Source of the DNA: an uncultured Gemmatimonadota bacterium
GTDB taxonomy: Bacteria > SM23-81 > DAOVCL01
Direction: 5' to 3'
DNA length: 64,000 nt
Assembly (NCBI GenBank): GCA_964626665.1
Contig: CAZVGK010000012.1
Location: 20,912 to 84,911 of the forward strand
Shown here: piece after piece, positions 1 through 37,299 of the stretch
How the letters are laid out: every line of letters starts with the position of its first letter
Numbering within the stretch: position 1 is the first letter of the stretch
Program-made: the position numbers and the translations under genes
Notes under the pieces: model-generated
Database searches by the model: none
What the model was told of the DNA's origin: nothing
Seen by the model: only the letters and a program-made list of their open reading frames with translations

Positions 1-908
1 ATTTTGACCTCGCTTCCATCCTTCAACATCTGCCCTCCCACCGTGACTATGATCTCGCCTCCTTTCAACCCTGCCAACACCTCCACCAGGTCTCCTTCAC
101 TTAGCCCCAGTTTGATCTCTTTTCTTCTTGCTATCTCACCATTGACCACGAAGACATAGTTTTCGACTCCGCTTTTTAAAATACAATCCTCGGGGATGAC
201 CAAGACATCCCTGTGCTCAGCCACGAGCAACCTCACCCTGGCGAAATATCCCGGTTTCAACCTGTGATCCGGGTTGCGAATGCTGATCTCCGCCGGAGCT
301 GTTCTGCTCATCGGGTCGACCACCGGGCTCAATCCCGTCAGCCGTCCAAGGAAGACCTCATCAGGATAGGCATCTACCCATATTTCTGCCTTCTGCCCCT
401 TCTTCACCCTGGGCAGATCCCTTTCGATAATGTTGATCTTGACCTTTACCGTATTCATATAGACGATCATAGCTATAGGGGTTCCCATAGAGGGAGATGG
501 CTTGGGGGGATTGACGCCACTCCCCTTATCCAAATAGACTCTTCCTACAATCCCGTCAATAGGTGAGGTAACCTCAACGGGCTCAAACTTCAACCCGGTT
601 ATGTCTCGGTCAACAATGGCGATTATCTCCTCCTTCTTCACCCTATCCCCCTCCTGCACCCTGTTTTCTATCAGCTTTCCAGCCACCTTGGGGTAGACCA
701 GAATCTGGTCCTGAGCCTTTATATCCCCGGTAAAGGAGAGCCTCTCCTCGATATTACCTCTTTTGACGGTATCCACCTCTATAGGCACGGCTTTGACCTC
801 CTCCACAACCACTTCCCTTTCTTTCCCTGCCTTGTATCTGGTCACTCCCTTGTAGCCGACAAAACCAATAACGGCTAAGATCACTATCCAGATAATTGTC
901 TTCTTCAT
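1..908 (-). CDS. RND efflux periplasmic adaptor (MFP) subunit, partial; runs off the window start and is absent from the ORF track
   Basis: Manual translation from ATG 908: MKKTIIWIVILAVIGFVGY...VYPKVAGKL...VQEGDRVKK...SPIDGIV...VDAYPDEVFLG...VVDPMSRT...LKPGYFARV, which are typical MFP motifs. Lies directly downstream of TolC. Confidence 0.9.
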   Translation of the reverse strand, partial: MKKTIIWIVILAVIGFVGYKGVTRYKAGKEREVVVEEVKAVPIEVDTVKRGNIEERLSFTGDIKAQDQILVYPKVAGKLIENRVQEGDRVKKEEIIAIVDRDITGLKFEPVEVTSPIDGIVGRVYLDKGSGVNPPKPSPSMGTPIAMIVYMNTVKVKINIIERDLPRVKKGQKAEIWVDAYPDEVFLGRLTGLSPVVDPMSRTAPAEISIRNPDHRLKPGYFARVRLLVAEHRDVLVIPEDCILKSGVENYVFVVNGEIARRKEIKLGLSEGDLVEVLAGLKGGEIIVTVGGQMLKDGSEVK

Positions 909-930
909 CTTTTCACTCCCTTTGGTTGGG

Positions 931-2274
931 TCACTCTATAACCCCTATAGCCCTCTGCAGCCCGGCAATGGCCAAGATTAGATCGTGCAAAGCCTGATAA
1001 TGATTGGTCTTGGCCTGAGTCAAGGCCAACTCCGCGCTCATCACATCCAGACTGGTCACCATCCCCTGCTTATACTGTTCCTGGGCGATCTCCACACTTC
1101 TTTGGGCCTGCCTGAGGTTCTCTTCACTGGAGGAGATTATATCCTCCGCCTCCCTTAAGGCTAAGTAAGCCCCTCTCACCTGGAGCTTAATCCCTTCCTG
1201 CAACTCCTCCTCCGCCAACTCTATCCTATCCACGGTCACCTTTGCTTCTTGCACCCTGGCTCTGGTATGGAAACCATCGAAGATGGGTAGGGACAAAACC
1301 AGCATACCCGTATAGCTCTTGTCCCATTTGCCCCAATCGAAGGAGAGGCTATTGTTTTCCGCCCTGTAGCTTCCCACAAAGGCCAGGCTGGGGTTGTCGT
1401 TGGCCCTGGCCAATTTGACCATTCTCTCTCCCATCCTCTTTTGATACTCAAGCTGCGCTATTTCGGATCTGGTCTCCAGAGCTATCCCAAGACAATCCTC
1501 TAAGCTGAGTTTGTAGGTAGTTCTCTTCAATTCCCCCTCAACCTCCATCTCCGTAGCTAAGTCTATCCCCAAGGTGTTCTTCAAGCCCATAAGAGCCAAT
1601 TTCAGTCCATCTTGGGCCTTGACAACCCCAGGCTTGAGATTGGCCAAGGAGACCTCGGCCCTGAGGACATCAAATTCAGAGGCCTCTCCAGCATCGTATC
1701 TGATTCTGGTCACCCTCAGGTGTTCCTTAGCCAGTGCCTCCGCCTCCTCGGTGACCTTGACGAACTCCTCAGCTAAAAGGACGCCATAAAATGTCCTCTT
1801 CACCTGGTAGATGGCCTCCTCTTTTGATTGCCTATATCTCTTCTCGGTAACCTTTAGATTCAATTCCGCTGTTTTGTAACCCTGCCAGATCCTACCCCAG
1901 GTAAAGAGCGGTTGGGTCAGGCTCAAGCTGGCGGTGTAGTCCTTGGTGAAATCCATCTCCACTTTCCTTGTAGCCCCTGAAGGTGGAAACATAAATTGGC
2001 CGACAGGAAACTCTATTTCGGGGATTCCCTCGAAGAGGGTATAGGAACCCTGGCCGCTGAGCTGAGGGAAGAACCCAGATCTGGCCTGTTTAACCTTTGC
2101 CTGGGCCGTTCTTATGTCCTCCTCGGCCTGGAGGACCCCTTTATTCCTCTCCAGAGCCAGCTTTATGCTCTCCTCTAAGGTTAAAATCAGTTTCCCCCCA
2201 GCAAAGAGGGATTTTACCCCAACAAGAGCAAGAAAGAGGATCAAAAATAGGGAAATCGGTTTTGGACTATTCAT
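931..2274 (-). CDS. TolC family outer membrane efflux protein
   Basis: Signal peptide, LTLEESIKLALERN start, two OEP repeats (LTQPLFTWG, LSLPIFDGF). Confidence 0.93.
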   Translation of the reverse strand: MNSPKPISLFLILFLALVGVKSLFAGGKLILTLEESIKLALERNKGVLQAEEDIRTAQAKVKQARSGFFPQLSGQGSYTLFEGIPEIEFPVGQFMFPPSGATRKVEMDFTKDYTASLSLTQPLFTWGRIWQGYKTAELNLKVTEKRYRQSKEEAIYQVKRTFYGVLLAEEFVKVTEEAEALAKEHLRVTRIRYDAGEASEFDVLRAEVSLANLKPGVVKAQDGLKLALMGLKNTLGIDLATEMEVEGELKRTTYKLSLEDCLGIALETRSEIAQLEYQKRMGERMVKLARANDNPSLAFVGSYRAENNSLSFDWGKWDKSYTGMLVLSLPIFDGFHTRARVQEAKVTVDRIELAEEELQEGIKLQVRGAYLALREAEDIISSSEENLRQAQRSVEIAQEQYKQGMVTSLDVMSAELALTQAKTNHYQALHDLILAIAGLQRAIGVIE

Positions 2275-2311
2275 ATCTTCCTCCAGAAGAAAATCTGATC
2301 TCCTAAAGTGG

Positions 2312-2926
2312 TTATCCTTTTGCTCCTTCGAAAAAGAGGCTGGCGATCACTGGACTCAACTCCATTAAAGAGCTCTCTCCACCGGTCAAAATCCATTGGG
2401 CGGTGAATGAGTGCACCATTCCGATTAAGGCTATGGCCAAATGATTTGGACCAATAGACTTCAGATCTTTATTGTCAACTGCGGCTTCCATCACTCCTTC
2501 AACCTCTTCCAAGTAACTCTGAAATCTCCTCACCAGTTCCTTTCTGAGTTTATTTTTAATTCCCATCTCAAACCTGCCTTTCTCCGAGGTCATAATCTGA
2601 AAAAACTCCTTGTTCTTCTCAAAAAACTCAAGGTGAGCTTTGATCAAGTTTTCTATGCTCTCGATAGGGTTTAAGCCGACCTTTATGCTCTCCTTTATCT
2701 TCTTCCCCAGACTGCCCACTTTCTCTCTCATAATGGAGAGGAAAATATCCTCCTTGTTCTTGAAATAGGTGTAAAGAGCACCTTTGCTGAACTCCGCCCT
2801 CTCGGCTATCTCGTCCACGGTGGCCGCATAGAAGCCCTTCTCGGCAAAGATCTCTTCAGCAGCAGAGAGAATGGCCTCCCTGTTGGCCAGTTTAACCCTT
2901 TCTCTTCTAGATAATGATTTATGCAT
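2312..2926 (-). CDS. TetR/AcrR family transcriptional regulator
   Basis: HTH ILSAAEEIFAEKGFYAATVDEIAERAEFSKGALYTYFKNKE; first gene of the efflux operon. Confidence 0.95.
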   Translation of the reverse strand: MHKSLSRRERVKLANREAILSAAEEIFAEKGFYAATVDEIAERAEFSKGALYTYFKNKEDIFLSIMREKVGSLGKKIKESIKVGLNPIESIENLIKAHLEFFEKNKEFFQIMTSEKGRFEMGIKNKLRKELVRRFQSYLEEVEGVMEAAVDNKDLKSIGPNHLAIALIGMVHSFTAQWILTGGESSLMELSPVIASLFFEGAKG

Positions 2927-2929
2927 TTT

Positions 2930-2993
2930 ACCGACCGTTTAGTCTAAAACTGAATGGTTAGTCAAACATAATTGGGCCTTTCCCAAAAGTCAA
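2930..2993 (-). promoter_or_regulatory. Sigma70-type promoter plus two tandem TetR-like operator pseudo-palindromes
   Basis: Minus-strand TTGACT (2993-2988), 17 nt, TATGTT (2970-2965). ACCGACCGTTTAGT (2930-2943) and ACTGAATGGTTAGT (2949-2962) lie between the promoter and the start codon. Confidence 0.6.
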
Positions 2994-3469
2994 GGAAAAA
3001 ATTTAATTTTTTGCAAAATGGTTTCTGTTCATTCGTAAACCAATTGGGGAAAGGCATCCAGACCCCAATTATAATCCCCCTGGCTAGCCGGAAGGGAGTC
3101 TCAGAAAGGAGGATCTGAGGATGGGGCTCTGTGCTGGGGGGATTCCGATGAGTTGCGGCCCTAAGGCCAGACATGGCACCAGCCTTCTGTGGGGGCCCGC
3201 GGATTTGGATCATATTCAGATAGGGGATCTGAAGGAAGATTCTCATTTGTTAGCCTCGATTTGCCTAACTTCACCCCGCCCTTTTGTCGCTTTACAGGAG
3301 GATAATGCAAGTCACCGAAAAATCATTGCTTCCCCAGGTAATCTCGTTATATTTGTGGCAGTTTAAGTTGCTTCAAGATCCAAGGGAATCCGTTGCCATT
3401 AAAACCATAGGAAACATTTCCGGTCTTAACACTCTCATCAGAGTTAACTGCTGTAAACTGTAACAGACA

Positions 3470-5644
3470 ATGAGAGGGGAAACCTTTATGCGAATTAAGA
3501 TAGCAATTTTATTCATACCTCTTTTGCTCATAGGCGTGGCGCAAAACGCGCGGGCTGCAGGGAAGACGGCCTGCTGGCTCAAGGGCTGGGTGAGAAACGA
3601 GGAAGGGAAACCCCTCCCCTATGCCAACATCTTCTTGAAGGGACGGATAGAGGGGGCAATGAGCGATGAGCAGGGGAACTTCTCCTTCTCTACTACCGCG
3701 CAGGGTAGAATCACCTTGATCTGCTCCTATATCGGCTACAAAACCTATGAGAGGGAGATAACCCTCAGGCCAGGGGAGACGATCAGGCTGGAGATCAGAT
3801 TGAAGACCGAGATAATCAAGGGGAGACTGATAACCATCACCGCCAGCAGCTTTACCAGTGCAGACAAAGAGGGGGTAACCCTCTCCAGCCTGGATGTGGT
3901 AACCACCCCCGGGGCAGCAGCGGATGTCCTTTGGGCGATAAAGACCTTTCCCGGTGTAGCTCAGGTGGAGGAGGGAGCCGGGTTGTTCGTCCGGGGTGGA
4001 GATGTTAGCGAGACGGTGATGCTTTTAGATGGGGCCGTCCTCTCCCATCCCTACAAATACGAATCCCCCACCGGTGGATTCTTCGGCACCATCAGCCCCT
4101 TCCTGCTTAAGGGAACTTACTTCTCCAGTGGAGGATTCTCCGCGCGCTACGGGAATGCCGTCTCCGGAGTATTGGCTATGGAGAGCAGGGATCTGCCAAC
4201 AAAGGGGGGAGGCACCTTGGGATTGGGCCTGGCTGCCGAGTCAGGTGAGATCAGACTCCCCCTGATCCCCGGGAAGTTAGGGTTTTCCTCCTCCGGAAAT
4301 ATCAGTGACACCAAGGCCATGTTCAAGCTGAACAACTCCCAGGGGAGGTTCTCCCAATATCCTTACGCCCATGACCTGAACTTCAACCTTATGTATCGGT
4401 ATTCCCCCAGTGGCTACCTTAAGCTCTTCCTCTTTCACGAGATGGATAAGATCGGGGTGAAGGTGAAAGACCCCCAATACGGCGGATTTTACAAAGGGAA
4501 AAGCCTCAATTACCTCTATAATCTGAAATTCAGTAACCTTTTTGTCCATAAGCTCTTGGTCCAGGGCAACCTCGCCTTCACCAATTTTAAACAGGAATCG
4601 CAACTAAACAGGTTAAACCTAAATTGCCAGGATAGGCTGAGCCAGCTTAAGCTCTCGGGGGATTGGGAGGCGGGCAGTGACCTTATCCTACGCGGGGGTA
4701 TATCCCACTTCTCCCGGAAGGTTCTCCAGGCGGGGACCATCCCCCAGGAGGAGGAGGACCTAAACCCCAATGCCCCCATAGATATAGTCGATACCCACTA
4801 CCACTCCGGGCTGACCAGTGGCTTCATCGAGGGTGAAATCTATAGCTTCTTGGGGAGGTTCATCCCTGGGCTGCGCGGGGAATATGAATCGAACTCCGCG
4901 GAGTTTACCCTCGACCCACGTCTCTCCCTGATGTTCCCCTTGGGAGCCCATTCCGGGTTGACCGCTGCCTGGGGGGTCTACCATCAGTATTCCAACCCAC
5001 AATACTATGACCCCAACATCGGTAATCCGAATCTGACAGCGATGGAAGCCACCCACAGGATCTTAGGATACGAGTATCAACAGGGGACCCAAATCCTTAG
5101 GATTGAAACCTACTCTAAGAAATACAGAAAATTGATTTTAGTGGATTCAACCTATAATTATACCAACGATGGCTACGGCTATGCCAAAGGGATTGATCTA
5201 TTTGTGAAACGATCCTTTAAGTCGGCATCCGGCTGGTTGTCTTACAGCTACCTTAAATCCAGGCGGAGGTGGAGGGATTTCCCCGATCTGCGGCCTCCTT
5301 ATTTCGATATCCCCCACAACCTGACCCTGGTGGCAAAACATGATCTCACCTCACACTTGAACTTGGGGGCAACTTATCGCTTTGCCACGGGCAAACCCTA
5401 TACCCCAGCCCCCGGCCAATACAATACTAAGAGGGTCCCCGACTATCAGAGGTTGGATATGAGCTTAAGCTACCTTTGTAGCCTCTTCGAGGGCAACTTT
5501 ACCGTTCTCTATCTCTCCGTATCCAACCTTCTAAGAAGGGTAAACATCTTTGACTATCGCTACTCGTCGGATTACAGCCAGAGGGAGCCGGTGAAGAGCT
5601 CCTTCGGGAGATCGGTCTATCTTGGGGTGTCACTGAGTATTTGA
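3470..5644 (+). CDS. TonB-dependent receptor with N-terminal carboxypeptidase-regulatory-like domain
   Basis: GWVRNEEGKPLPYANI...SYIGY; plug motifs PGV, LFVRGG, LLDG, SGGFSARYGNAVSGV; C-terminal beta strand. Start may be 3488. Confidence 0.92.
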   Translation: MRGETFMRIKIAILFIPLLLIGVAQNARAAGKTACWLKGWVRNEEGKPLPYANIFLKGRIEGAMSDEQGNFSFSTTAQGRITLICSYIGYKTYEREITLRPGETIRLEIRLKTEIIKGRLITITASSFTSADKEGVTLSSLDVVTTPGAAADVLWAIKTFPGVAQVEEGAGLFVRGGDVSETVMLLDGAVLSHPYKYESPTGGFFGTISPFLLKGTYFSSGGFSARYGNAVSGVLAMESRDLPTKGGGTLGLGLAAESGEIRLPLIPGKLGFSSSGNISDTKAMFKLNNSQGRFSQYPYAHDLNFNLMYRYSPSGYLKLFLFHEMDKIGVKVKDPQYGGFYKGKSLNYLYNLKFSNLFVHKLLVQGNLAFTNFKQESQLNRLNLNCQDRLSQLKLSGDWEAGSDLILRGGISHFSRKVLQAGTIPQEEEDLNPNAPIDIVDTHYHSGLTSGFIEGEIYSFLGRFIPGLRGEYESNSAEFTLDPRLSLMFPLGAHSGLTAAWGVYHQYSNPQYYDPNIGNPNLTAMEATHRILGYEYQQGTQILRIETYSKKYRKLILVDSTYNYTNDGYGYAKGIDLFVKRSFKSASGWLSYSYLKSRRRWRDFPDLRPPYFDIPHNLTLVAKHDLTSHLNLGATYRFATGKPYTPAPGQYNTKRVPDYQRLDMSLSYLCSLFEGNFTVLYLSVSNLLRRVNIFDYRYSSDYSQREPVKSSFGRSVYLGVSLSI

Positions 5645-5804
5645 GATTAACCGCTGGTAATGACTCACCGCGGATAAGCACGGACTAACACAGACGAACC
5701 TAAAGTGGCAAAGCCGCACCAGAGCAAGAGCCACGGATCGCACTGAGAAAAAAACCACTACCGTAGATTGGGTATCGTAGCTCGTTACTCGAAGGGGTTT
5801 TTGA

Positions 5805-5830
5805 GGTGGCAAAACCCAGATTCTGTCGCC
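5805..5830. repeat. Degenerate copy of the GGTGGCAGAACCCCGATTCTGCCACC REP-like palindrome
   Basis: GGTGGCAAAACCCAGATTCTGTCGCC; other copies at 22329, 26698, 33621 and 55785. Confidence 0.7.
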
Positions 5831-5904
5831 GCCTTTTGGCCGTCAGATGGGGGCATCTACCAGCTCAGTGGGTTCTCTTTCGTCTTCTACCCCCGCAACA
5901 GGTC

Positions 5905-6043
5905 TAACCCGAATTATTCATTCATAGATTAGTATAACATCTCGAATCGCTAAGGGTTTCTTGTCGTACGGTGTAAACACATAAACCATAAAGAATAAAG
6001 CGGTTATAGCAATTAGTTGCCAGTTAATGAATAATCCGGCCTA
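5905..6043. repeat. MITE-like element with CCG(A/G)ATTATTCATT terminal inverted repeats
   Basis: CCGAATTATTCATT (5909-5922) matches the reverse complement of AATGAATAATCCGG (6026-6039) at 13/14; TA at both outer ends. Confidence 0.5.
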
Positions 6044-6246
6044 AAGACTTACTCTTATAATGTTTTCCAACGGGTTTTTGGGGCCGTAAGGGGACCCGCA
6101 CTAAAGTGGGGTAGAAATTTTGCACCGCAAACTCTGCCCAAAAAACAAGATCTGACAAGTTTTTAGTACAAAGGGATTTGAGAGAAAGTGAAAGGTTTAA
6201 ACGATTGAAACGAGCACCCAATTTAACCCTTAGTCAGGAGGTTATA

Positions 6247-7029
6247 ATGAAGAAACTTCTCTTTGTTGTTGGGATGATTCTTGTCATTAGCTCATTGGCC
6301 CATGCTCAGAGTCACGTCGACTCACTAATCATCCAGGGCAAGGAGCAGATCCAGTCTGCGGTTGATGGCTGGGATTTGCAAAAGATGATAGCCGCACGGG
6401 GTTTCTTTGAACGACTATTGAACGACCCCACCTATCTTTGGCTTGCCCATTATTACATCGGCTACGCCGATATGCGGATTGTGACCTACTACTTCAGCAA
6501 GGAGGATAAAGATAGGGCCCTGGAGTGGGTTAATGATGGCATTAAACATCTCAAGAAGTCAATTGAGCTGAAGGGCGATTTTGCCGAGCCCTACAGCCTC
6601 CTATCCTCCTTGTATGGGAACAAGATAGGGATCAAACCTCTGCTGGGGATGATCTTAGGGCCCAAATCAGGGGGGGCACAGAAAAAGGCCTTCGAACTCG
6701 CCCCCCAGAACCCCCGTTCCCACCTGATAGCCGGGGAATCGGCCTACTATACCCCGAAGCTCTTCGGCGGCGGGAAGGAGAAGGCCTTGAAATACCTCCA
6801 CCAGGCCGCCGAATATTTTATCACCTATCAGCCAAAAGGGGAGATCTACCCCTCGTGGGGTTATGAGGAGACCTATGCCTACTTGGGGTTAATTCAGATG
6901 GACAAGGGCAACTTTGATCTGGCCAGGGAGAATTTCCAGAAAGCGTTACAGATTAACCTTCATTATGGTTGGGTTAAGTTCTACCTGATGAAGGAGTTAG
7001 AAAAGAAAGCCTCCAAGGAAAAGAAATAG
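6247..7029 (+). CDS. Secreted tetratricopeptide repeat protein
   Basis: AGGAGG RBS before ATG 6247, signal peptide MKKLLFVVGMILVISSLAHA, TPR-like helices, TPKLFGGGKEKA motif. Confidence 0.85.
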   Translation: MKKLLFVVGMILVISSLAHAQSHVDSLIIQGKEQIQSAVDGWDLQKMIAARGFFERLLNDPTYLWLAHYYIGYADMRIVTYYFSKEDKDRALEWVNDGIKHLKKSIELKGDFAEPYSLLSSLYGNKIGIKPLLGMILGPKSGGAQKKAFELAPQNPRSHLIAGESAYYTPKLFGGGKEKALKYLHQAAEYFITYQPKGEIYPSWGYEETYAYLGLIQMDKGNFDLARENFQKALQINLHYGWVKFYLMKELEKKASKEKK

Positions 7030-7060
7030 ATGTGGTTGCATATTTTGGTGGTATGAACCT

Positions 7061-8152
7061 ATGAACTCTGCAGGAGAAAAGAAGAAGATAACTATTGGGA
7101 GGGGAAAGTTCATCCTCTATGGTTTTCTCCTCTGGACCCTGTGGGTGGGCTTCTATTCTGTTGTTTTTAAATTTCAGGTGGGGGTGCCCTGGTTTGTTGC
7201 CTTATTCGTCTCAGCCGAGAACTACTACATATTCGCCTTGCTCAGTATCGGTATCTGGTTTGTTTGCCGCCAAATCCCATACGGTCGCTTGCCGGTTCCC
7301 ATCTTTGTGTTCATTCACTTCATACTGGCCATAGTTTGTTCGACGCTCTGGTTATTTTTGACCTATGGGCTATGGTATTTGCAATCAGGGAAAGAAATAT
7401 TTAAATTTGTCGAAATAGAAAAGATAATAGGGTGGCAGTTTCTATTTGGCATGATAACCTATCTTCTCCTCGCCGGCATATTCTATACCATCATCTACTA
7501 CAAACATTACCGTGAGGAGGAGCTGAGGGAGGCCGAACTGAAGCTCTTAACCCGGGATGCTGAACTGAAAGCCCTGAAACTTCAAGTAAATCCCCATTTC
7601 CTCTTCAACTCATTAAACTCGATCAATGCCCTGGTGACTAAGGATCCCCAGTTAGCCCGGAGGATGATTGCCAGGCTTTCGGAACTCCTGAGGATGGCCT
7701 TAGAGAGCCATAAGAAGCTGATGGTTCCATTGAGAGAGGAGCTCGATTTTGTTCACACCTATTTGGAGATCGAGCGGATCCGCTTCGGCGAGAGGCTGGC
7801 CTATGAGGAAGAGGTCGGCCAAAAGCTTTTAGCCCAGCCATTTCCGGCTATGCTGCTTCAGCCCCTTGTGGAAAACGCGGTAAAACATGGTATTGTCAAT
7901 AGCCGCAAGGGGGGGAGGATAAGGTTAAGGATGGAGGTATCAGGGGATAGAATCACCTGTTCTGTGGGCAATACCCTCCCAGGGGAGGTGGGTATGGGGG
8001 AAGGAAGCCCGAACCAAGGTGGCACCGGTTTGAGCAACATCCACCAGAGACTTGAGCGGCTCTACGAGGGGAATTACGAGCTTCAGATTGACCGTTCAGA
8101 TCCCCGATGGTTTGAGGTTTCCCTTTCCCTTCCCTTGAAGTGGGAGGTTTAA
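7061..8152 (+). CDS. LytS/YehU-type membrane sensor histidine kinase
   Basis: N-terminal TM helices, ALKLQVNPHFLFNSLNSI, LQPLVENAVKHG, GTGLSNI. Confidence 0.95.
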   Translation: MNSAGEKKKITIGRGKFILYGFLLWTLWVGFYSVVFKFQVGVPWFVALFVSAENYYIFALLSIGIWFVCRQIPYGRLPVPIFVFIHFILAIVCSTLWLFLTYGLWYLQSGKEIFKFVEIEKIIGWQFLFGMITYLLLAGIFYTIIYYKHYREEELREAELKLLTRDAELKALKLQVNPHFLFNSLNSINALVTKDPQLARRMIARLSELLRMALESHKKLMVPLREELDFVHTYLEIERIRFGERLAYEEEVGQKLLAQPFPAMLLQPLVENAVKHGIVNSRKGGRIRLRMEVSGDRITCSVGNTLPGEVGMGEGSPNQGGTGLSNIHQRLERLYEGNYELQIDRSDPRWFEVSLSLPLKWEV

Positions 8153-31738: not shown

Positions 31739-31992
31739 GGAACCTGGGCATTTGGAAATTATCTGGAAACACCGAAATGTTCCTCCCCTCTACCCTAAGG
31801 GGGAACTCCACCCAAACGAGGACGCCTGGGCAACTCTTGTAGTTACAGTAAGCTGTTGTTGGGATTTAATATCTGAACAAGTCACCGACTGCTTCCTTGA
31901 GTCGGCAACCCAATTTCGCGGATGATAACTCCAGGCAGAAGGGAGAGGCACTTTTTTAATGGATCGGAGGGGAAGGATCTCTTAACCAGAGG

Positions 31993-33540
31993 TTAAAGGA
32001 TATAGAAGAGCAAAATCCCGGCCAAACAAAGGAACATCATTCCCATCCCCAACTTTACCCCCTTCCCCCTTCTCTTCCAGAACTCCGTCAACCTCTCTGA
32101 GGTCATCCCCTTGTAGGCCAGAAGGAAGATAACTACCAGGGGCAGGATAAAACATAGGTTATAAAAGAATAGATAGAGCAGGGCCTTGGCCTTGAGGGCG
32201 GGGACCTTGGTCACAAATATGATGGTGGGCAGGTAAACCTGGCCTGTACAGGCAAACTCCAACAGGGAGATAAAAAAACCAGTAACCAAAGCGGCAAGGA
32301 CATAGTTTTTCGCTCGAGAGCGGGTGCGCACCGCCTGGTGTATTCTCCTGTGCAGGAACCCAGGAAGCTTGAGAATAGATTCTTCATACTCGCTCTCCCT
32401 GTATTTAGCATAGTCGTAAAAACTTAAACCAGCCAAAACCAGGGCCCCAGTTGCAGTAAGTATATAGACTATTCTGGCCACAATGGGCATAAAGCTCAGG
32501 GATTGAACGAACTTCAGTAGGCCTAACCCCACTATAAAGTAGGTTATGAAAACAGCCAGGGTAAAGGCAGAACCAACGGCGAGTAGCTCCCTCCCCTTGC
32601 GGCCCACAAAGGCCAGATAGGAGATGAAGAAGACTATGGTCACAAAGGCGCAGGGGTTTACCCCGTCCAAGAGACCAGCGGAGATGACCGTGGTGATCTC
32701 CAAGCCCTTGAACCTGCTGATTATCTTCTTCTCTGCCCGCTTCAGCTCCCCTCGGGCCATCTCCCAGGGAGGGGTTGCTTCTACATCCTTATATTTTTTA
32801 ATGAGCCTTTCTAAGTTCTTGTCATTCACCTCCATACCTAACAGGTAATCCCCCCCGATGAAGGCCTCCGGGATGGACATCCTTTGGGCTTCCGGGACAT
32901 TGTATACCTCCCCCAAGGCCTCCGCCAACCTTTTGCTCTCTGGATCCAGGATGTTAAACTTTCTCACCACCAAATGGGGATATTTACTCTCCAGGTGCTT
33001 TATCCGATATTCAGCCCTGTCACACTCCTTACAGCCAAACTTGTAAAAATAGGCCAGATAGATCTTCTTACTCTCCTGGGCTGGGGGAATTTCCCCCATC
33101 TCCCCCTCCCCCCAGACAGGTTTTGAGGCATAAACCCCTCCCTGGGTAAGCTCCAAATGGGAGAAGGGAATTCCGGTTGCAGAATACTGGGAGAGCACCC
33201 CCCGCAGTTTTCCTTTTACATCCTGACCGCTGAGCAGGGAATCGCCGATGATGAAGACTGGGATTTCATTCTTCCCCTTCCCATAGGCCTCTTCCAGGTT
33301 CACCAGCACCTGGTAATTGGCTGGGCTGTTCACCTCGAAGTAGCGCAACTGAAGCCTGTCCCCATAGAGGAATTCAATCTTGGGCAGGAAATTTTTGATG
33401 ATCACCTGGCAATCCTCGCAATCCTGGGCATAGAAGACATAAAAAGAGAGCTTGGGGCCCTCTTTCCCACTTGCCCAGGAATGGTTGAAAATCACCAGGA
33501 AGAGAAGGGATAATACCCAACCAACTCTGCCCAACCTCAA
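31993..33540 (-). CDS. DsbD/CcdA-like thiol-disulfide transmembrane protein with two periplasmic thioredoxin-like CxxC domains
   Basis: Signal peptide, YAQDCEDC and FGCKEC motifs, TM domain with GLLDGVNPCAF and LLEFACTGQVY cysteines. Confidence 0.85.
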   Translation of the reverse strand: MRLGRVGWVLSLLFLVIFNHSWASGKEGPKLSFYVFYAQDCEDCQVIIKNFLPKIEFLYGDRLQLRYFEVNSPANYQVLVNLEEAYGKGKNEIPVFIIGDSLLSGQDVKGKLRGVLSQYSATGIPFSHLELTQGGVYASKPVWGEGEMGEIPPAQESKKIYLAYFYKFGCKECDRAEYRIKHLESKYPHLVVRKFNILDPESKRLAEALGEVYNVPEAQRMSIPEAFIGGDYLLGMEVNDKNLERLIKKYKDVEATPPWEMARGELKRAEKKIISRFKGLEITTVISAGLLDGVNPCAFVTIVFFISYLAFVGRKGRELLAVGSAFTLAVFITYFIVGLGLLKFVQSLSFMPIVARIVYILTATGALVLAGLSFYDYAKYRESEYEESILKLPGFLHRRIHQAVRTRSRAKNYVLAALVTGFFISLLEFACTGQVYLPTIIFVTKVPALKAKALLYLFFYNLCFILPLVVIFLLAYKGMTSERLTEFWKRRGKGVKLGMGMMFLCLAGILLFYIL

Positions 33541-33620
33541 ATCACCTCCCCCATTTTAGGGTTTTGACCTCCTGATCTTCTTCAGCCTATGGCCTTTTTG
33601 CTTCTTCTTGTCCAAGATGA

Positions 33621-33646
33621 GGTGGCAGAACCCCGATTCTGCCACC
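33621..33646. repeat. REP-like palindrome GGTGGCAGAACCCCGATTCTGCCACC
   Basis: Exact copy. Confidence 0.85.
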
Positions 33647-33719
33647 TTCACCTTTTGCTGGTAGGTGAGGGCACCTGACGGCTTACCGGTGATGTAATTC
33701 CACGAGATTCCAAGATGAA

Positions 33720-34694
33720 CTATTTCTTCCTTATTTTTTGCCCCTTCTTGTACGCCCGAATCAACTCCAAAATCCCCGGATCATCCTTAATCTTCTCTTC
33801 CAGGAGCTGGGAACGGGATTCAATCGACTCCAGCCTCCTCCGCGGATTTAAGGAAAGGATGAGGTCCCCCGCATAATAGCTCTTTGTACCAGCAACTGCC
33901 AGATAGGTTTCCCCTACCTTCTCCGGTAGCCCCTCTACCGATCCTATCCTTCCCCCGATTATCAGGTTAATCCCCTCTATCTTCTTGGCCAGTTCCTGAG
34001 ATTGGCTCTGCTCCAAATCGGTGAGCACAATCACCAGATCACATTTCCCTCGCAGCTTGTGCACTAAGCGACTGGCAACCTCCGTTGGATCGTCCACCAC
34101 CAGCGGTTTGTCCCCCTGTTGAGGCTTGATCCGCTCGATTGCCGCAGGTGAGGCCAAACCAAATATCCCCACCTTGAGCCCTCCATATCCAATACCCAGA
34201 AAGCTTTTCCCCCCATACCTCTTGATGATATAAGGCCGGGCAAAATGCGACCCCGTATCCTTATACCTGATGTTGGCCGAGATTAGGGGGAGCTTATACT
34301 TGCCCCCCAAATCCTTAAGAAATTTCTCCCCTAAGAAAAAATCCCAGCCGGCTACATTTATGGCATCGTAGCCCAAAAGAGCCATCCCTCGGGCCATAAA
34401 TTCAGCCTTCAGCTTGCTGGTCCTACTTCCATAACAGAGGAACTGACTCGCATCAACGGCCAGCAGACAGGCGTTACTAACTCTATTCTCTTTTATGTAT
34501 GTGGCTCGCCGAGCCAACCCGCCATAATCATGGCGATGTCCTCAGGTGGGGCAGGGCTCCAGATAACCCCACATATTCCCCGAGTAGACGACCTGGACCT
34601 TATCTACGGCCACCTGGGGGGAACTGCAGGCCCAAAAGGAGCCCAAGGCCAAAAGCAAAAGGAAGAGTAGCAAAAGGCGCATCTCCCTTTCCAT
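33720..34694 (-). CDS. UshA/5'-nucleotidase-like lipoprotein, predicted selenoprotein (in-frame TGA at codon 51, CxxU)
   Basis: AAAGGAGG RBS, ATG 34694, lipobox FWAC, then GYLEPCPT-TGA-GHRHDYGGLARRATYI in the same frame as ORF 33720..34517; hairpins 3' of the TGA. Confidence 0.8.
34502..34544 (-). promoter_or_regulatory. Candidate bacterial SECIS hairpin(s) after the UGA
   Basis: mRNA UGA-GGACAU-CGCCAU(GAUU)AUGGCG-GGU-UGGCUC(GGC)GAGCCA; both loops start with G. Confidence 0.5.
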
Positions 34695-34768
34695 CGTTAT
34701 CCTCCTTTCAATTGGAACCCTGGCAAGCCAGAGCTTGTTGAGTTTGATACCCACAATGGGCAAGGCTT

Positions 34769-35167
34769 TCACCCTTGCCCATTCCTGTTCAACGAAGACG
34801 GGTCAAAATTGACCCCCGTTTCCAGGCGCTTACACCTATCCATCACAGCAGAATTAAGACACATCCCCACCTTCTGCAGGTCCTGCTTTGTCACCTCCTT
34901 CCTCTCCATCCAATCCCTTATCGCTGGAGAGAGAACCTGCAGATAGGGATTATCCTCCAGGGAATAGAAGACCCATTTCCCCTCTCTCCTGTCCTTAACC
35001 AAACCTGCCCCCCTTAGTATCCGCAGTTGGTGGGAGATATTCGACTGGGAGGCCCCCAAAACATTCTCCAGCTCACAGACACACAACTCCCCTTCCATAA
35101 GTAATCTTACCATCCGCAATCGGTTAGGATCGGAAAGGGCCTTAAAGATTTCGCCCAAGTCCCTCAT
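34769..35167 (-). CDS. arsR: ArsR/SmtB family repressor with ELCVC motif
   Basis: FKALSDPNRL, GELCVCEL, SQSNISHQL, REGKWVFYSL. Confidence 0.93.
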   Translation of the reverse strand: MRDLGEIFKALSDPNRLRMVRLLMEGELCVCELENVLGASQSNISHQLRILRGAGLVKDRREGKWVFYSLEDNPYLQVLSPAIRDWMERKEVTKQDLQKVGMCLNSAVMDRCKRLETGVNFDPSSLNRNGQG

Positions 35168-35176
35168 CTAAGAAGA

Positions 35177-35222
35177 TATGAAGATTCTTTCATAAGTTAA
35201 TAAACCTCTCCCCCCAAGTCAA
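35177..35222 (-). promoter_or_regulatory. arsR promoter with overlapping ArsR-type operator
   Basis: Minus-strand TTGACT (35222-35217), 17 nt, TAACTT (35199-35194); inverted repeat TATGAA-N6-TTCATA (35177-35194). Confidence 0.65.
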
Positions 35223-35405
35223 GGGGAAAATGAAATCCCTCTAGCCTCCTTCATAAGGCAACTTCCTCTGTGCAGGACAAAAATCCCCCGGAAATGGATT
35301 AATCATTTGAGATAATTGTTGTTAGTTAAAAAATTGTTTGACATTTCGTGAATAATATGCTCAGTTATGACGTCGGGAAATACTTCTTTAATAGGAGATA
35401 GCGCC

Positions 35406-35627
35406 ATGACTGAGATTGAAATCATAAAGAAAGCCTTCAAAGATCATCTGAAATGGAACGCTGCAAGAATAGGCTTCTTAGCCAACTTTCTTATTGCACT
35501 TTTGAAGGTCAGAAGTGTCAATTTAGTTGAGATTGCAACTGCCTTTTCCAGAAAAGCCAAGAAAGAGTCGAACTATAAACGTCTACAGCGATTCTTCAGA
35601 TTTTTTCCTATTGATTTTTCAACTATT
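35406..35627 (+). pseudogene. IS4-family transposase N-terminal fragment, truncated by a second IS
   Basis: LKWNAARIGFLANFLIALLKVRSVNLVEIA...SNYKRLQRFF resembles IS4-family N-termini; the similarity ends at the next element's inverted repeat (35628). Confidence 0.75.
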
Positions 35628-37299
35628 AGAGGCTGTTTAAAAATTGCCTCTGAATTTGAGTTAACTATTTAATTTCAAAGAAGTTCTTTGAAAAAAATTT
35701 ACTTTTCCCTCTAAAAAAGGTTGACTTTGATGAAAATTTGATTATATTATTGCTTGTTAATAGTCAAAGCTTCAACCTTTAAGGAGGTAAGAAATGAGCC
35801 AAAGTCATCAACTGTCGTTCATCAGGATCTATGATAAAGAGGTTGATCCTGACTTAGAACGGTTGGATGAGCTGATCAATGATGAGGCCATCGATGCAGC
35901 CTTCTCCTATAAGATAGCCTGGCGGGGAAGAAAACTTGTCCCTATCTCCAGGAAGGTGCGAGCCCATATCCTCAAGGCAATCAAGAGGATTCCCTCCTTC
36001 AATCAGCTCTGTAGGGAGCTCAAGCAGCGAAAGGCCTATCGGAGATTCTGCCATCTAAAGAGCAAGAAGGATGGCTTCTGTCCTGCTACCTTGACCAACT
36101 TCCGCCAGGATTTCTCCTTCCGGGATCGGCTCACCCTGATCTCTATCTTCATCAAGACTGCTGACTCCCTGGGCTTCTTCCAGAACTGCTCTCAGTTGCA
36201 TATCACCGACTCCACAGAGATGGAGTCCCCTTGTCGCTGGGAGCCTATTGAGGTTATAGAGGTCAATGGATGTAAGGTGGAGGTGTTCCGAGACCCCACA
36301 GCCAGTAGAGGGAAGCGCGCAGCCAAGAAGGGCAAGAGCCGTTTCCTGGTGGGCCATAGGAAGCACTCCTTAGCTATTCTCCTGCCCAACAACAAGGTGG
36401 TTACCCTCATTTCAATTGTTGCTCCCGCCCATCAGCAGGATGTCCATTTCCTTCTGCCCCTTTTATATCTGGCCCAGGCCTTGGGGCTTGAGGTAAAGTA
36501 TGTGGTGGCAGACTTGGCCTACATAGACTCTGAGCGCAAGAGGGTGGCCAAGGAGAGGTTTGGGGTAGTGGTTCATACCGACAAGAAGGTAAACAGCCGC
36601 CTGCCTGAGATGGTTGATGAGAGAGGTGCTCCCTATTGTATTATGGGGGAGAACCTCCAGTGGTTGGGCCTTGACCAGGAAAGCGGGCTGCACTATTATG
36701 GGTGTGGATTGGATGAGCCAAAGGATTGTCCCCTCTATGGGGGATGTGAGAAGCTAAGGGTGATTGACTCTGCCCAATACCCGGTGGCCTTTGGCCAGAT
36801 CCCTGTTCACCTTAAAGTGGGCCAGAAGATGCTGAGGGCAAGGAAGTTGAAGGAGCCCGGTTTCTGGCGGGATAGGAATAAGGGTGGATTAGACAGGATT
36901 AGCTTGTTGAACAAGGATAATGCTCACTTCTTAGCAGTGATTGCCGATGTCTGTGATCTTTTGGACTCTCTGGCAATTTTCTTAGAAAGCAAAAGGTCAC
37001 TTCAGAAGAAGACAGCTTAAGGCTGGTTTATAGGCAGTAGCCCAGAGGGGTCAGTCAGAAGGGGGTTTCTCCCACAAAGAGGGAGCGGTTGAACTTTCTA
37101 TCCTCAAGAGGATAGAAATCCGCCTTATAAGAGCTAAAGATGGGATAACTTTGCCTTCTGGCGGAGCCCTTGAGCACTTTACTGCTTACATATGTCAAAG
37201 AGCGGCAATTCCAGGGTCTTGATTTTTTTCAAAAAAGGCCTGAATGCCAAATGGGTACCTCTAATCCCAAGAGGAAAATTCTATTTTTAAACAGCCTCT
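35628..37299 (+). mobile_element. Insertion sequence (IS1182/IS5-like DDE) with perfect 17-bp terminal inverted repeats
   Basis: AGAGGCTGTTTAAAAAT (35628-35644) and ATTTTTAAACAGCCTCT (37283-37299) enclose a transposase ORF. Confidence 0.88.
35794..37020 (+). CDS. DDE transposase
   Basis: AAGGAGG RBS; PATLTNFR, ITDST, GHRKH, VVADLAY motifs; lies within the inverted repeats. Confidence 0.85.
   Translation: MSQSHQLSFIRIYDKEVDPDLERLDELINDEAIDAAFSYKIAWRGRKLVPISRKVRAHILKAIKRIPSFNQLCRELKQRKAYRRFCHLKSKKDGFCPATLTNFRQDFSFRDRLTLISIFIKTADSLGFFQNCSQLHITDSTEMESPCRWEPIEVIEVNGCKVEVFRDPTASRGKRAAKKGKSRFLVGHRKHSLAILLPNNKVVTLISIVAPAHQQDVHFLLPLLYLAQALGLEVKYVVADLAYIDSERKRVAKERFGVVVHTDKKVNSRLPEMVDERGAPYCIMGENLQWLGLDQESGLHYYGCGLDEPKDCPLYGGCEKLRVIDSAQYPVAFGQIPVHLKVGQKMLRARKLKEPGFWRDRNKGGLDRISLLNKDNAHFLAVIADVCDLLDSLAIFLESKRSLQKKTA

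Follow-up and report, generated by a model that had tools for sequence, protein, structure and literature searches.

Which protein could supply electrons to a bacterial lipoprotein that carries selenocysteine (Sec), and what does it mean that its gene stands behind one for a regulator of the ArsR family? The question is raised by three genes in a stretch of 64,000 nucleotides of contig CAZVGK010000012.1 from an uncultured Gemmatimonadota bacterium (here the window, meaning the whole stretch of DNA that was analysed). The source is a salt-marsh bacterium, and the 23 sequencing runs containing it are all of salt-marsh metagenome DNA; its 3.17-Mb genome (G000) carries the window on contig C12. 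The genes lie in the same orientation on the minus strand, in the order arsR, a gene for a predicted lipoprotein (gene 2) and a gene for a membrane protein (gene 3), and in this the gene calls agree with a first-pass annotation of the window. We find that the cluster is probably a relay of the DsbD superfamily with an unusual Sec partner under predicted ArsR control. In it the CcdA/DsbD-type protein, with its two periplasmic CxxC domains, probably reduces the lipoprotein, which joins a CxxU motif to what is predicted to be a dead nucleotidase fold.

With its single in-frame TGA read through, the product of gene 2 has a signal peptide, followed by Cys23 and VVYSGNMWGYLEPCPTUG. The lipobox region (S-F-W-A-C23) is non-canonical compared to L-[AS]-[GA]-C, whereas the ortholog in a second genome of the same genus (G002) has a canonical L-S-A-C. 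Searching 61 genomes, we found a single in-frame TGA at the same position in 14 matches from 11 of them, among these a 41%-identical paralog on contig C9 of G000 and two adjacent copies in G002. Homologs without the TGA have Cys aligned there, in the motifs PCGC, PCSC (CSC), PCDC (CDC) and FPCRC. The TGA is also shared by the close metagenome relatives L172 and L174, and L176 has an equivalent full-length tblastn match. A hairpin over the codons for GGLARRA is present in all 14 loci. Across 18 sequences 93.3% of its cells are paired, whereas sliding the partner leaves 33.6-48.7%. Both sides change in three of the seven pairs, one of these being a U-A/C-G switch at two synonymous third positions, and none of 500 shuffles reached the covariation score. 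The whole 81 nt after the UGA folded no better than shuffles (z -0.12), and the case for a Sec insertion sequence (SECIS) therefore rests on covariation. The first hairpin past the UGA (CGCCAU-GAUU-AUGGCG) was discarded as a candidate, being conserved only inside the close clade, and an Rfam scan of 31800-35500 returned nothing relevant, with one chance microRNA (miRNA) match (E 0.22). Machinery for Sec is encoded in the genome, with selA and selB at C32:27575-30793 and tRNA-Sec at C54:4326-4426. By the conserved TGA, the aligned Cys, the covarying hairpin and the presence of selA, selB and tRNA-Sec, the earlier reading of the motif as CxxU is borne out, and on these comparisons of sequence we take the TGA to be a real Sec codon. 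The redox motif itself varies, being CPTU in the window, PCGU in most relatives, SGUGC or SGUGS in paralogs and U-R-G-C in a family from the same phylum (f2).

The fold of the lipoprotein went unrecognised in the first-pass annotation. It matches the model NF041198, 'UshA-like (seleno)protein', over model positions 2-298 of 519 (2e-41; 142.1 bits compared to a cut-off of 275) and NF049981, 'family 2', over model positions 2-86 of 262 only (9e-21; 74.5 bits compared to 140), with the CxxU motif present. Next after these UshA-like models comes SoxB (TIGR04486), likewise below cut-off, at 2.9e-15 and up to 1.5e-32 in relatives; the UshA 5'-nucleotidase is matched at 1e-7, and a search of Pfam with the lipoprotein gave no match, Metallophos (PF00149) included. 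In an alignment with the canonical proteins P0145 and P0146, the places of the phosphoesterase metal-ligand motifs DxH, GD, GNH, H and GH are taken by GNMW, AS, AGW, D and GR. Since all five are replaced, phosphoesterase activity would not be expected. By these matches the lipoprotein is a predicted catalytically dead 5'-nucleotidase (UshA/SoxB-like) fold of the catalogued 'UshA-like (seleno)protein' kind: it shares the homologous dimetal phosphoesterase fold with the SoxB thiosulfohydrolase and the UshA 5'-nucleotidase, but lacks their metal-ligand motifs and C-terminal substrate-binding domain, and has gained a Cys-Sec pair.

An UshA-like CxU family (COG0737) is listed in the Global Ocean Sampling (GOS) study of 2008 (PMC2398784) and in a review (PMC9312934), and NF041198 (PCGU, CxU) and NF049981 (family 2, CxxU, as GenBank-annotated) are both listed in PMC13188914. 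As far as the accessible parts of PMC13188914 and PMC9312934 go, the lipoprotein belongs to a catalogued kind, so the selenoprotein itself is not undescribed; the accessible parts of the three sources assign these families neither a function nor a DsbD-like partner. Like the catalogued families, the window protein has an N-terminal metallophosphoesterase-like fold with Cys/Sec just past the first beta-strand motif and a GGLARRA block that bears the putative SECIS, and its CxxU motif is as in family 2. Unlike NF041198, it lacks the C-terminal half of the 519-position model, and it scores below both cut-offs. A literature search (UshA-like, TsoB, DsbD/CcdA/ScsB) found no paper tying this kind of selenoprotein to a DsbD-like protein, so that the earlier view of the system as not yet described stands for the link and falls for the selenoprotein. 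The cluster offers a testable partner and electron source for a kind of selenoprotein catalogued since 2008 without a function, and in it a phosphoesterase fold would plainly have been reused to build a Cys/Sec redox site.

Gene 3 encodes six cysteines (CEDC at 41-44, CKEC at 170-173, C297 and C431), all of them invariant in 90 aligned homologs. With more than 1500 homologs or protein clusters, and at least 594 confirmed loci in contigs of species-representative genomes, it points to a widespread membrane thiol-relay family that has no Pfam model. No domain of the protein scored above a Pfam cut-off, the window protein gave no match to DsbD_TM or DsbD_2, and PF02683 was touched weakly by seven of the 90 homologs (best 4.1e-6). 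Aligning the family by hhalign to 25 true DsbD_TM/CcdA segments gave a probability of 95.3% (E 2e-8, 200 columns), with N-P-C297 placed on S-P-C and A-C431-T-G-Q on T-P-C-x-G-P, so that both membrane cysteines are matched; Atlas neighbours of gene 3 also carry DsbD_TM. An AlphaFold2 (AF2) model (pLDDT 78) contains a pair of thioredoxin folds, themselves at a pLDDT of ~90, together with a signal helix and six long helices. For the periplasmic part the best Foldseek matches were the protein disulfide oxidoreductase (PDO) of P. furiosus (1a8l, E 3.5e-4) and the N-terminal domain of AhpF (5h29, E 7.1e-4), with low TM-scores on the target (0.30-0.31). The whole model matched by its thioredoxin part only, no CcdA for the membrane part being among the 50 matches listed, and a sequence search of the PDB with the gene-3 profile gave weak thioredoxin, glutaredoxin or DsbA matches (E at least 0.0012) and no CcdA. 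The charge distribution reads as placing both thioredoxin domains and both termini outside. The two periplasmic CxxC domains and the DsbD/CcdA-like membrane domain with two transmembrane (TM) cysteines, as described earlier, are thereby upheld, the membrane domain being, by its profile, a distant CcdA/DsbD homolog.

The DsbD superfamily is defined by two membrane cysteines, through which electrons of cytoplasmic thioredoxin reach a thioredoxin-like domain in the periplasm (Cho et al. 2012, PMC3322552). Compared to DsbD, CcdA and ScsB, as the accessible part of that paper presents them, gene 3 has the two similarly placed membrane cysteines, the six-helix CcdA-like core and periplasmic thioredoxin-like acceptors in the same predicted order of beta, gamma and a further Cys-pair domain. 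It departs from them in TM4, which reads E-x-x-C-T-G-Q-V-Y-x-P and not TPCxxP, and in falling below all Pfam and NCBIfam DsbD cut-offs. Both of its thioredoxin folds are N-terminal to the membrane domain, whereas in DsbD alpha is N-terminal and gamma C-terminal, and its 'alpha-like' partner would be a pseudo-5'-nucleotidase domain, present here as a separate Sec lipoprotein and elsewhere as a fusion. The tandem-thioredoxin disulfide oxidoreductases (1a8l, 5h29) also have two consecutive thioredoxin folds, but are soluble, cytoplasmic proteins without a membrane domain.

Does gene 3 accompany the lipoprotein beyond this cluster? The full trio is found in G002 (74, 78 and 78% identity) and is intact in the metagenome contigs L172, L174 and L176; L173 has the tail of gene 2 before gene 3 at the contig edge, and L175 begins within gene 3. 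The exact trio is thus confined to one genus-level clade. Between G000 and G002 the flanks of the cluster differ and are not syntenic. In G002 the cluster (L022, on contig C62, 5381-9640) has, on one strand, an UshA-like paralog (SGUGC), ArsR, the UshA-like CPTU gene and gene 3, and the counterpart of this paralog in G000 is on another contig (G000:C9:52912-53817; 78.6% identical). Taken together, the paralog on another contig and the non-syntenic flanks make the cluster look like a rearranged cassette.

The two families also meet outside the clade. Homologs of gene 3 (E 1e-10 or better) occur in 15 of the 61 genomes; among these an UshA-like domain is fused in G010 (798 aa, FPCRCP) and G050 (at least 709 aa, CPTC), and an UshA-like gene is adjacent to gene 3 in G000, G002 and G020. 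We also inspected the neighbourhoods of the best 80 of 594 genome-contig loci, which were picked by gene 3 alone, include many short contigs and contain kin that are not independent. UshA-like sequence lies within the flanks of 18 of the 80. Uninterrupted fusions of the two families account for 14 loci (11 Poribacteria, and L105, L114 and L159), an UshA-like gene is adjacent in two (L156 and L140), and in another two, both Anaerolineae, a separate PCGU selenoprotein gene lies 1.5-2.2 kb downstream. The pairing therefore recurs in several bacterial phyla, often as a single fused protein, and the earlier idea of a membrane protein that serves the lipoprotein holds, on the fusions in G010, G050 and the 14 loci and on the adjacency in G020. 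The long gene-3 homologs (600-840 aa) were considered as further UshA fusions and ruled out, blastp giving no matches.

The regulator matches HTH_5 (PF01022; 68.6 bits compared to a cut-off of 22, E 4.2e-19) and NF033788 (108.5 bits compared to 55, E 1e-31). Its cysteines are, as claimed before, those of ELCVCEL (C29 and C31) and two extra C-terminal ones (C103 and C112), and all four are present in the G002 ortholog. In common with the ArsR/SmtB metalloregulators (R773 ArsR, CadC, SmtB) it has an HTH_5 winged helix, ELCVC in the DNA-recognition region and the first position in its cluster; unlike them it has no N-terminal arm, and unlike R773 ArsR (ELCVCDLC) it lacks the third Cys while having two more at the C-terminus. 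Sensors of Cd, Pb and Zn in the ArsR/SmtB family also have ELCVC, and the protein is below the cut-off of the E. coli ArsR subfamily (PRK10141, 70 bits compared to 97), so the motif does not hold as the specific sign of As(III)/Sb(III) sensing for which it had been taken. The models for BigR (60.8 bits, cut-off 155) and the TsoR equivalog (51.8 bits, cut-off 115) are likewise missed, and the cut-off of the CmtR model was unreached. Since no cut-off for E. coli ArsR, BigR, CmtR or TsoR is reached, the inducer is unreadable from the sequence.

Upstream of arsR the inverted repeat TATGAA-AGAATC-TTCATA is found exactly where the first-pass annotation had placed it, and is the one match in the window compared to 0.20 expected (at most one mismatch). 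Its TGAA-N6-TTCA-type palindrome resembles the operators of SmtB and CzrA. The metagenome contigs L172, L174 and L176 retain the half-sites TATGAA/TTCATA around a differing central 6 nt and conserve a -35 block, CCCTTGAYTT; by this conservation of the half-sites the predicted operator gains support and is likely to be one. The promoter that the repeat was said to overlap is partly confirmed: TTGACT-17-TAACTT can be read, but a consensus scan calls no promoter because the -10 hexamer fits three of six positions. In G002 the corresponding elements are TTGACA-17-TAAATT and, after it, TGAAT-GT-ATTCA. It is likely that the cluster is repressed by its own ArsR-family regulator. An ArsR-type regulator (TsoR), a DsbD-type protein and one or more selenoproteins also come together in the Tso operon, where TsoB is a rhodanese/DsbD-fusion selenoprotein (PMC13188914). 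As far as the accessible part of that source describes Tso, the window differs in that its selenoprotein is UshA-like and not TsoA, TsoB or TsoC, that gene 3 has neither Sec nor rhodanese, and that its regulator scores below the TsoR cut-off.

From these features we infer a direction of electron flow, a contact between the two envelope proteins and a type of substrate. Electrons from cytoplasmic thioredoxin would cross the membrane via C297 and C431, as suggested by homology only. The CKEC and CEDC domains would receive them and then reduce the C48-U51 selenenylsulfide of the lipoprotein, which in turn may reduce or bind a periplasmic substrate in the pocket of the former dimetal site. The UshA-like domain would act either as an analogue of the DsbD alpha domain or as a terminal reductase. 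ArsR would let go of TATGAA-N6-TTCATA upon oxidation of its CVC site or once a thiophilic metal(loid) is bound there. For the substrate our guess would be a soft metal(loid) or chalcogen species, and a metal(loid) role is plausible from context, given the ArsR and a few neighbourhoods; if either is the substrate, the cluster would give bacteria of anaerobic sediments a new route for detoxification or redox chemistry in the periplasm. A bolder and, in our estimate, unlikely extension would make it a fourth architectural class of the DsbD superfamily, in which the driving part is a CcdA-like core preceded by tandem thioredoxin domains and the driven part a Cys/Sec domain of pseudo-5'-nucleotidase type, which would depend on selenium to reduce or trap soft metal(loid)s (such as arsenic, antimony or mercury) in the periplasm; here the system would be split in two genes and switched on by ArsR.

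Both families are also found in other company. Within 5 kb of gene-3 homologs, ArsR-family genes occur at eight of the 80 loci, and the neighbourhoods include ArsP_1-type permeases (6 loci), Trx_3 (6) and DUF1573 (22). No neighbour or N-terminal fusion of gene 3 is more frequent than the DUF1573 / OS_HP2 '(seleno)protein' domain (22 of 80; for example L120, L148, L149 and L060), another orphan domain in the gene-3 relay. In two genomes of the same phylum (G005 and G006) a gene-3 homolog is grouped with ArsR, an ArsP_1 permease and Trx_3, and in G059 a CopZ/MerP-like HMA protein is directly upstream of a 47%-identical gene-3 homolog; a flavoprotein beside the G017 homolog, considered as MerA, proved to be dihydrolipoyl dehydrogenase. 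In L108 (Atribacterota; 567-7433) an ArsR-headed cluster on one strand runs through an ArsP_1-like permease, an MTH895/ArsE thioredoxin-like protein, a thioredoxin, CcdA, ACR3 (382 bits compared to a cut-off of 282.8), a gene-3 homolog and a radical SAM/SPASM maturase; with its two members of the DsbD superfamily it resembles an enlarged operon of the ars type. On the side of the lipoprotein, many UshA-like Cys/Sec proteins (L028, L030, L031, L032 and P0132-P0142) have a C-terminal multihaem cytochrome domain (Cytochrome_C554 / C7). In four loci of the same phylum, from one family and three genera (L023-L026, being G005:C45, G003:C237, G004:C140 and G006:C7), the gene of a U-R-G-C UshA-like selenoprotein is directly upstream of selA on the same strand, with selB where the contig allows; this adjacency might reflect co-regulation or a role connected with selenium.

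Several of these observations weigh against reduction of the lipoprotein by gene 3 under ArsR control. The window gene 3 reaches no DsbD model of Pfam or NCBIfam, and an UshA-like gene was not found in the fetched flanks of 62 of the 80 gene-3 loci, which suggests that gene 3 also serves other partners (DUF1573, ArsP_1 with Trx_3, HMA). Most of the fusions (11 of 14) come from one phylum, Poribacteria, and retain one Cys only (HGCG). Many UshA-like relatives are fused to multihaem cytochromes or adjoin selA-selB, so that a thiol relay may be one of several electron inputs or contexts. The cytochrome fusions fit a domain that needs electrons supplied from somewhere. As regards control, the promoter is weak by consensus, with its -10 hexamer at three of six positions, the operator-like palindrome of G002 differs (TGAAT-GT-ATTCA), and a repetitive extragenic palindromic (REP) hairpin in the spacer could separate the expression of gene 3 from that of gene 2. 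The absence of an UshA-like neighbour at those 62 loci would also suit an arrangement of independent neighbours, in which gene 3 would reduce periplasmic disulfides in general, to repair proteins or mature cytochromes, while the selenolipoprotein would be fed from elsewhere and the cluster would be a mobile cassette, as would the lack of synteny between the G000 and G002 flanks and an insertion sequence (IS) that ends ~100 bp upstream of arsR. We consider this very unlikely, as no fewer than four separate lineages have uninterrupted fusions (G010, G050, Poribacteria and L105/L114/L159), and for general duties a canonical CcdA is encoded separately, on C50 (56.9 bits).

In an alternative metal(loid) hand-over of the MerP-MerT type, the gene-3 cysteines and the Cys-Sec pair would pass As(III), Sb(III), Hg(II), Cu(I) or Cd(II) from ligand to ligand across or out of the envelope, with ArsR as the sensor. 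A CVC-site regulator at the head of the cluster, the HMA protein next to the G059 homolog, the L108 homolog that follows an ACR3 arsenite pump in an ArsR-headed cluster and the ArsP_1-type permeases at six of 80 loci would all be accommodated; however, the membrane domain is homologous to the electron-transferring DsbD_TM with exactly the two redox cysteines aligned, the periplasmic domains are thioredoxin folds and not HMA, and ACR3 is found at one locus only, with no intact acr3 in G000 (best match 21.5 bits), making hand-over rather improbable. We would call it quite unlikely, too, that the relay is real and serves sulfur or selenium chemistry, with a lipoprotein that handles polysulfide, thiosulfonate, selenite or selenotrisulfide, possibly for selenium acquisition, and an ArsR that senses thiols or persulfides. 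SoxB is indeed the next-best NCBIfam match, the regulator does score on BigR, a U-R-G-C homolog is directly upstream of selA-selB in G003-G006, and the multihaem cytochrome fusions point to respiratory-type redox chemistry. Yet the dimanganese ligands of SoxB are all lost, the selA-selB neighbourhood is confined to a single family (four genomes, three genera), and no sulfur or selenium metabolism genes flank the window cluster. Reduction of the selenolipoprotein by the gene-3 relay accommodates the recurrent fusions, and it is the reading that we prefer.

The coordinates of the cluster are collected in Table 1. The lipoprotein open reading frame (ORF) starts with ATG at 34694, 75 bases past arsR and preceded by AGGAGG, has its in-frame TGA at 34544-34542 and ends with TAG at 33720. 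A spacer of 179 bases separates it from gene 3, for which a second TTG six bases in is an alternative start with better spacing to the ribosome-binding site; the database copy (P0002) has 513 aa.

Table 1. Features of the arsR, selenolipoprotein and gene 3 cluster, in window coordinates.
Feature	Position	Strand	Basis or remark
Putative sigma-70 promoter TTGACT (35222-35217), 17-nt spacer, TAACTT (35199-35194)	35194..35222	-	read from sequence
Inverted repeat TATGAA-N6-TTCATA, putative ArsR operator	35177..35194	.	exact match; abuts -10 hexamer
arsR, ArsR/SmtB-family repressor, 132 aa, C29-V-C31, C103 and C112	34769..35167	-	HTH_5, NF033788
UshA-like (pseudo-5'-nucleotidase) selenolipoprotein gene, 324 codons, signal peptide, Cys23, C48-P-T-U51	33720..34694	-	translation; NF041198, NF049981 and SoxB matches below cut-offs
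UGA codon, read as selenocysteine U51	34542..34544	-	TGA kept in homologs, Cys aligned
Putative bacterial SECIS (bSECIS)-type hairpin UGGCUC-GGC-GAGCCA over GGLARRA codons	34501..34517	-	stem start ~28 nt past U of UGA
REP-like palindromic hairpin, gene 2-gene 3 spacer	33616..33652	-	184 genomic core copies
Gene 3, 515 aa: signal peptide, two thioredoxin-fold CxxC domains, 6-helix CcdA/DsbD-like membrane domain	31993..33540	-	

The REP claimed for the spacer is real: the hairpin is a copy of a palindromic repeat that occurs 184 times in the genome. It has a strong stem with no U-run behind it, is absent from the list of a terminator-like scan, and is missing from the shorter spacers of close relatives (55 bp and ~3 bp); it is a late insertion. 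The repeat, GTGGCAGAA-N6-TTCTGCCAC, forms a REP-like family of the source organism, with four further sites on C12.

The neighbours of the window cluster are a MATE pump, a CvpA-like protein and the IS element. The latter spans 35266-37020 and has IS1182-like transposase ORFs at 35367-35672 and 35794-37020; copies of its end at 35266 are found on contigs C4 (100% identity) and C8 (98%). Elsewhere in G000 there is only one other HTH_5 regulator (G000:C24:44854-46459), and ~1.3 kb away from it is a short ACR3-like fragment with a weak score (21.5 bits), in what may be a decayed ars locus.

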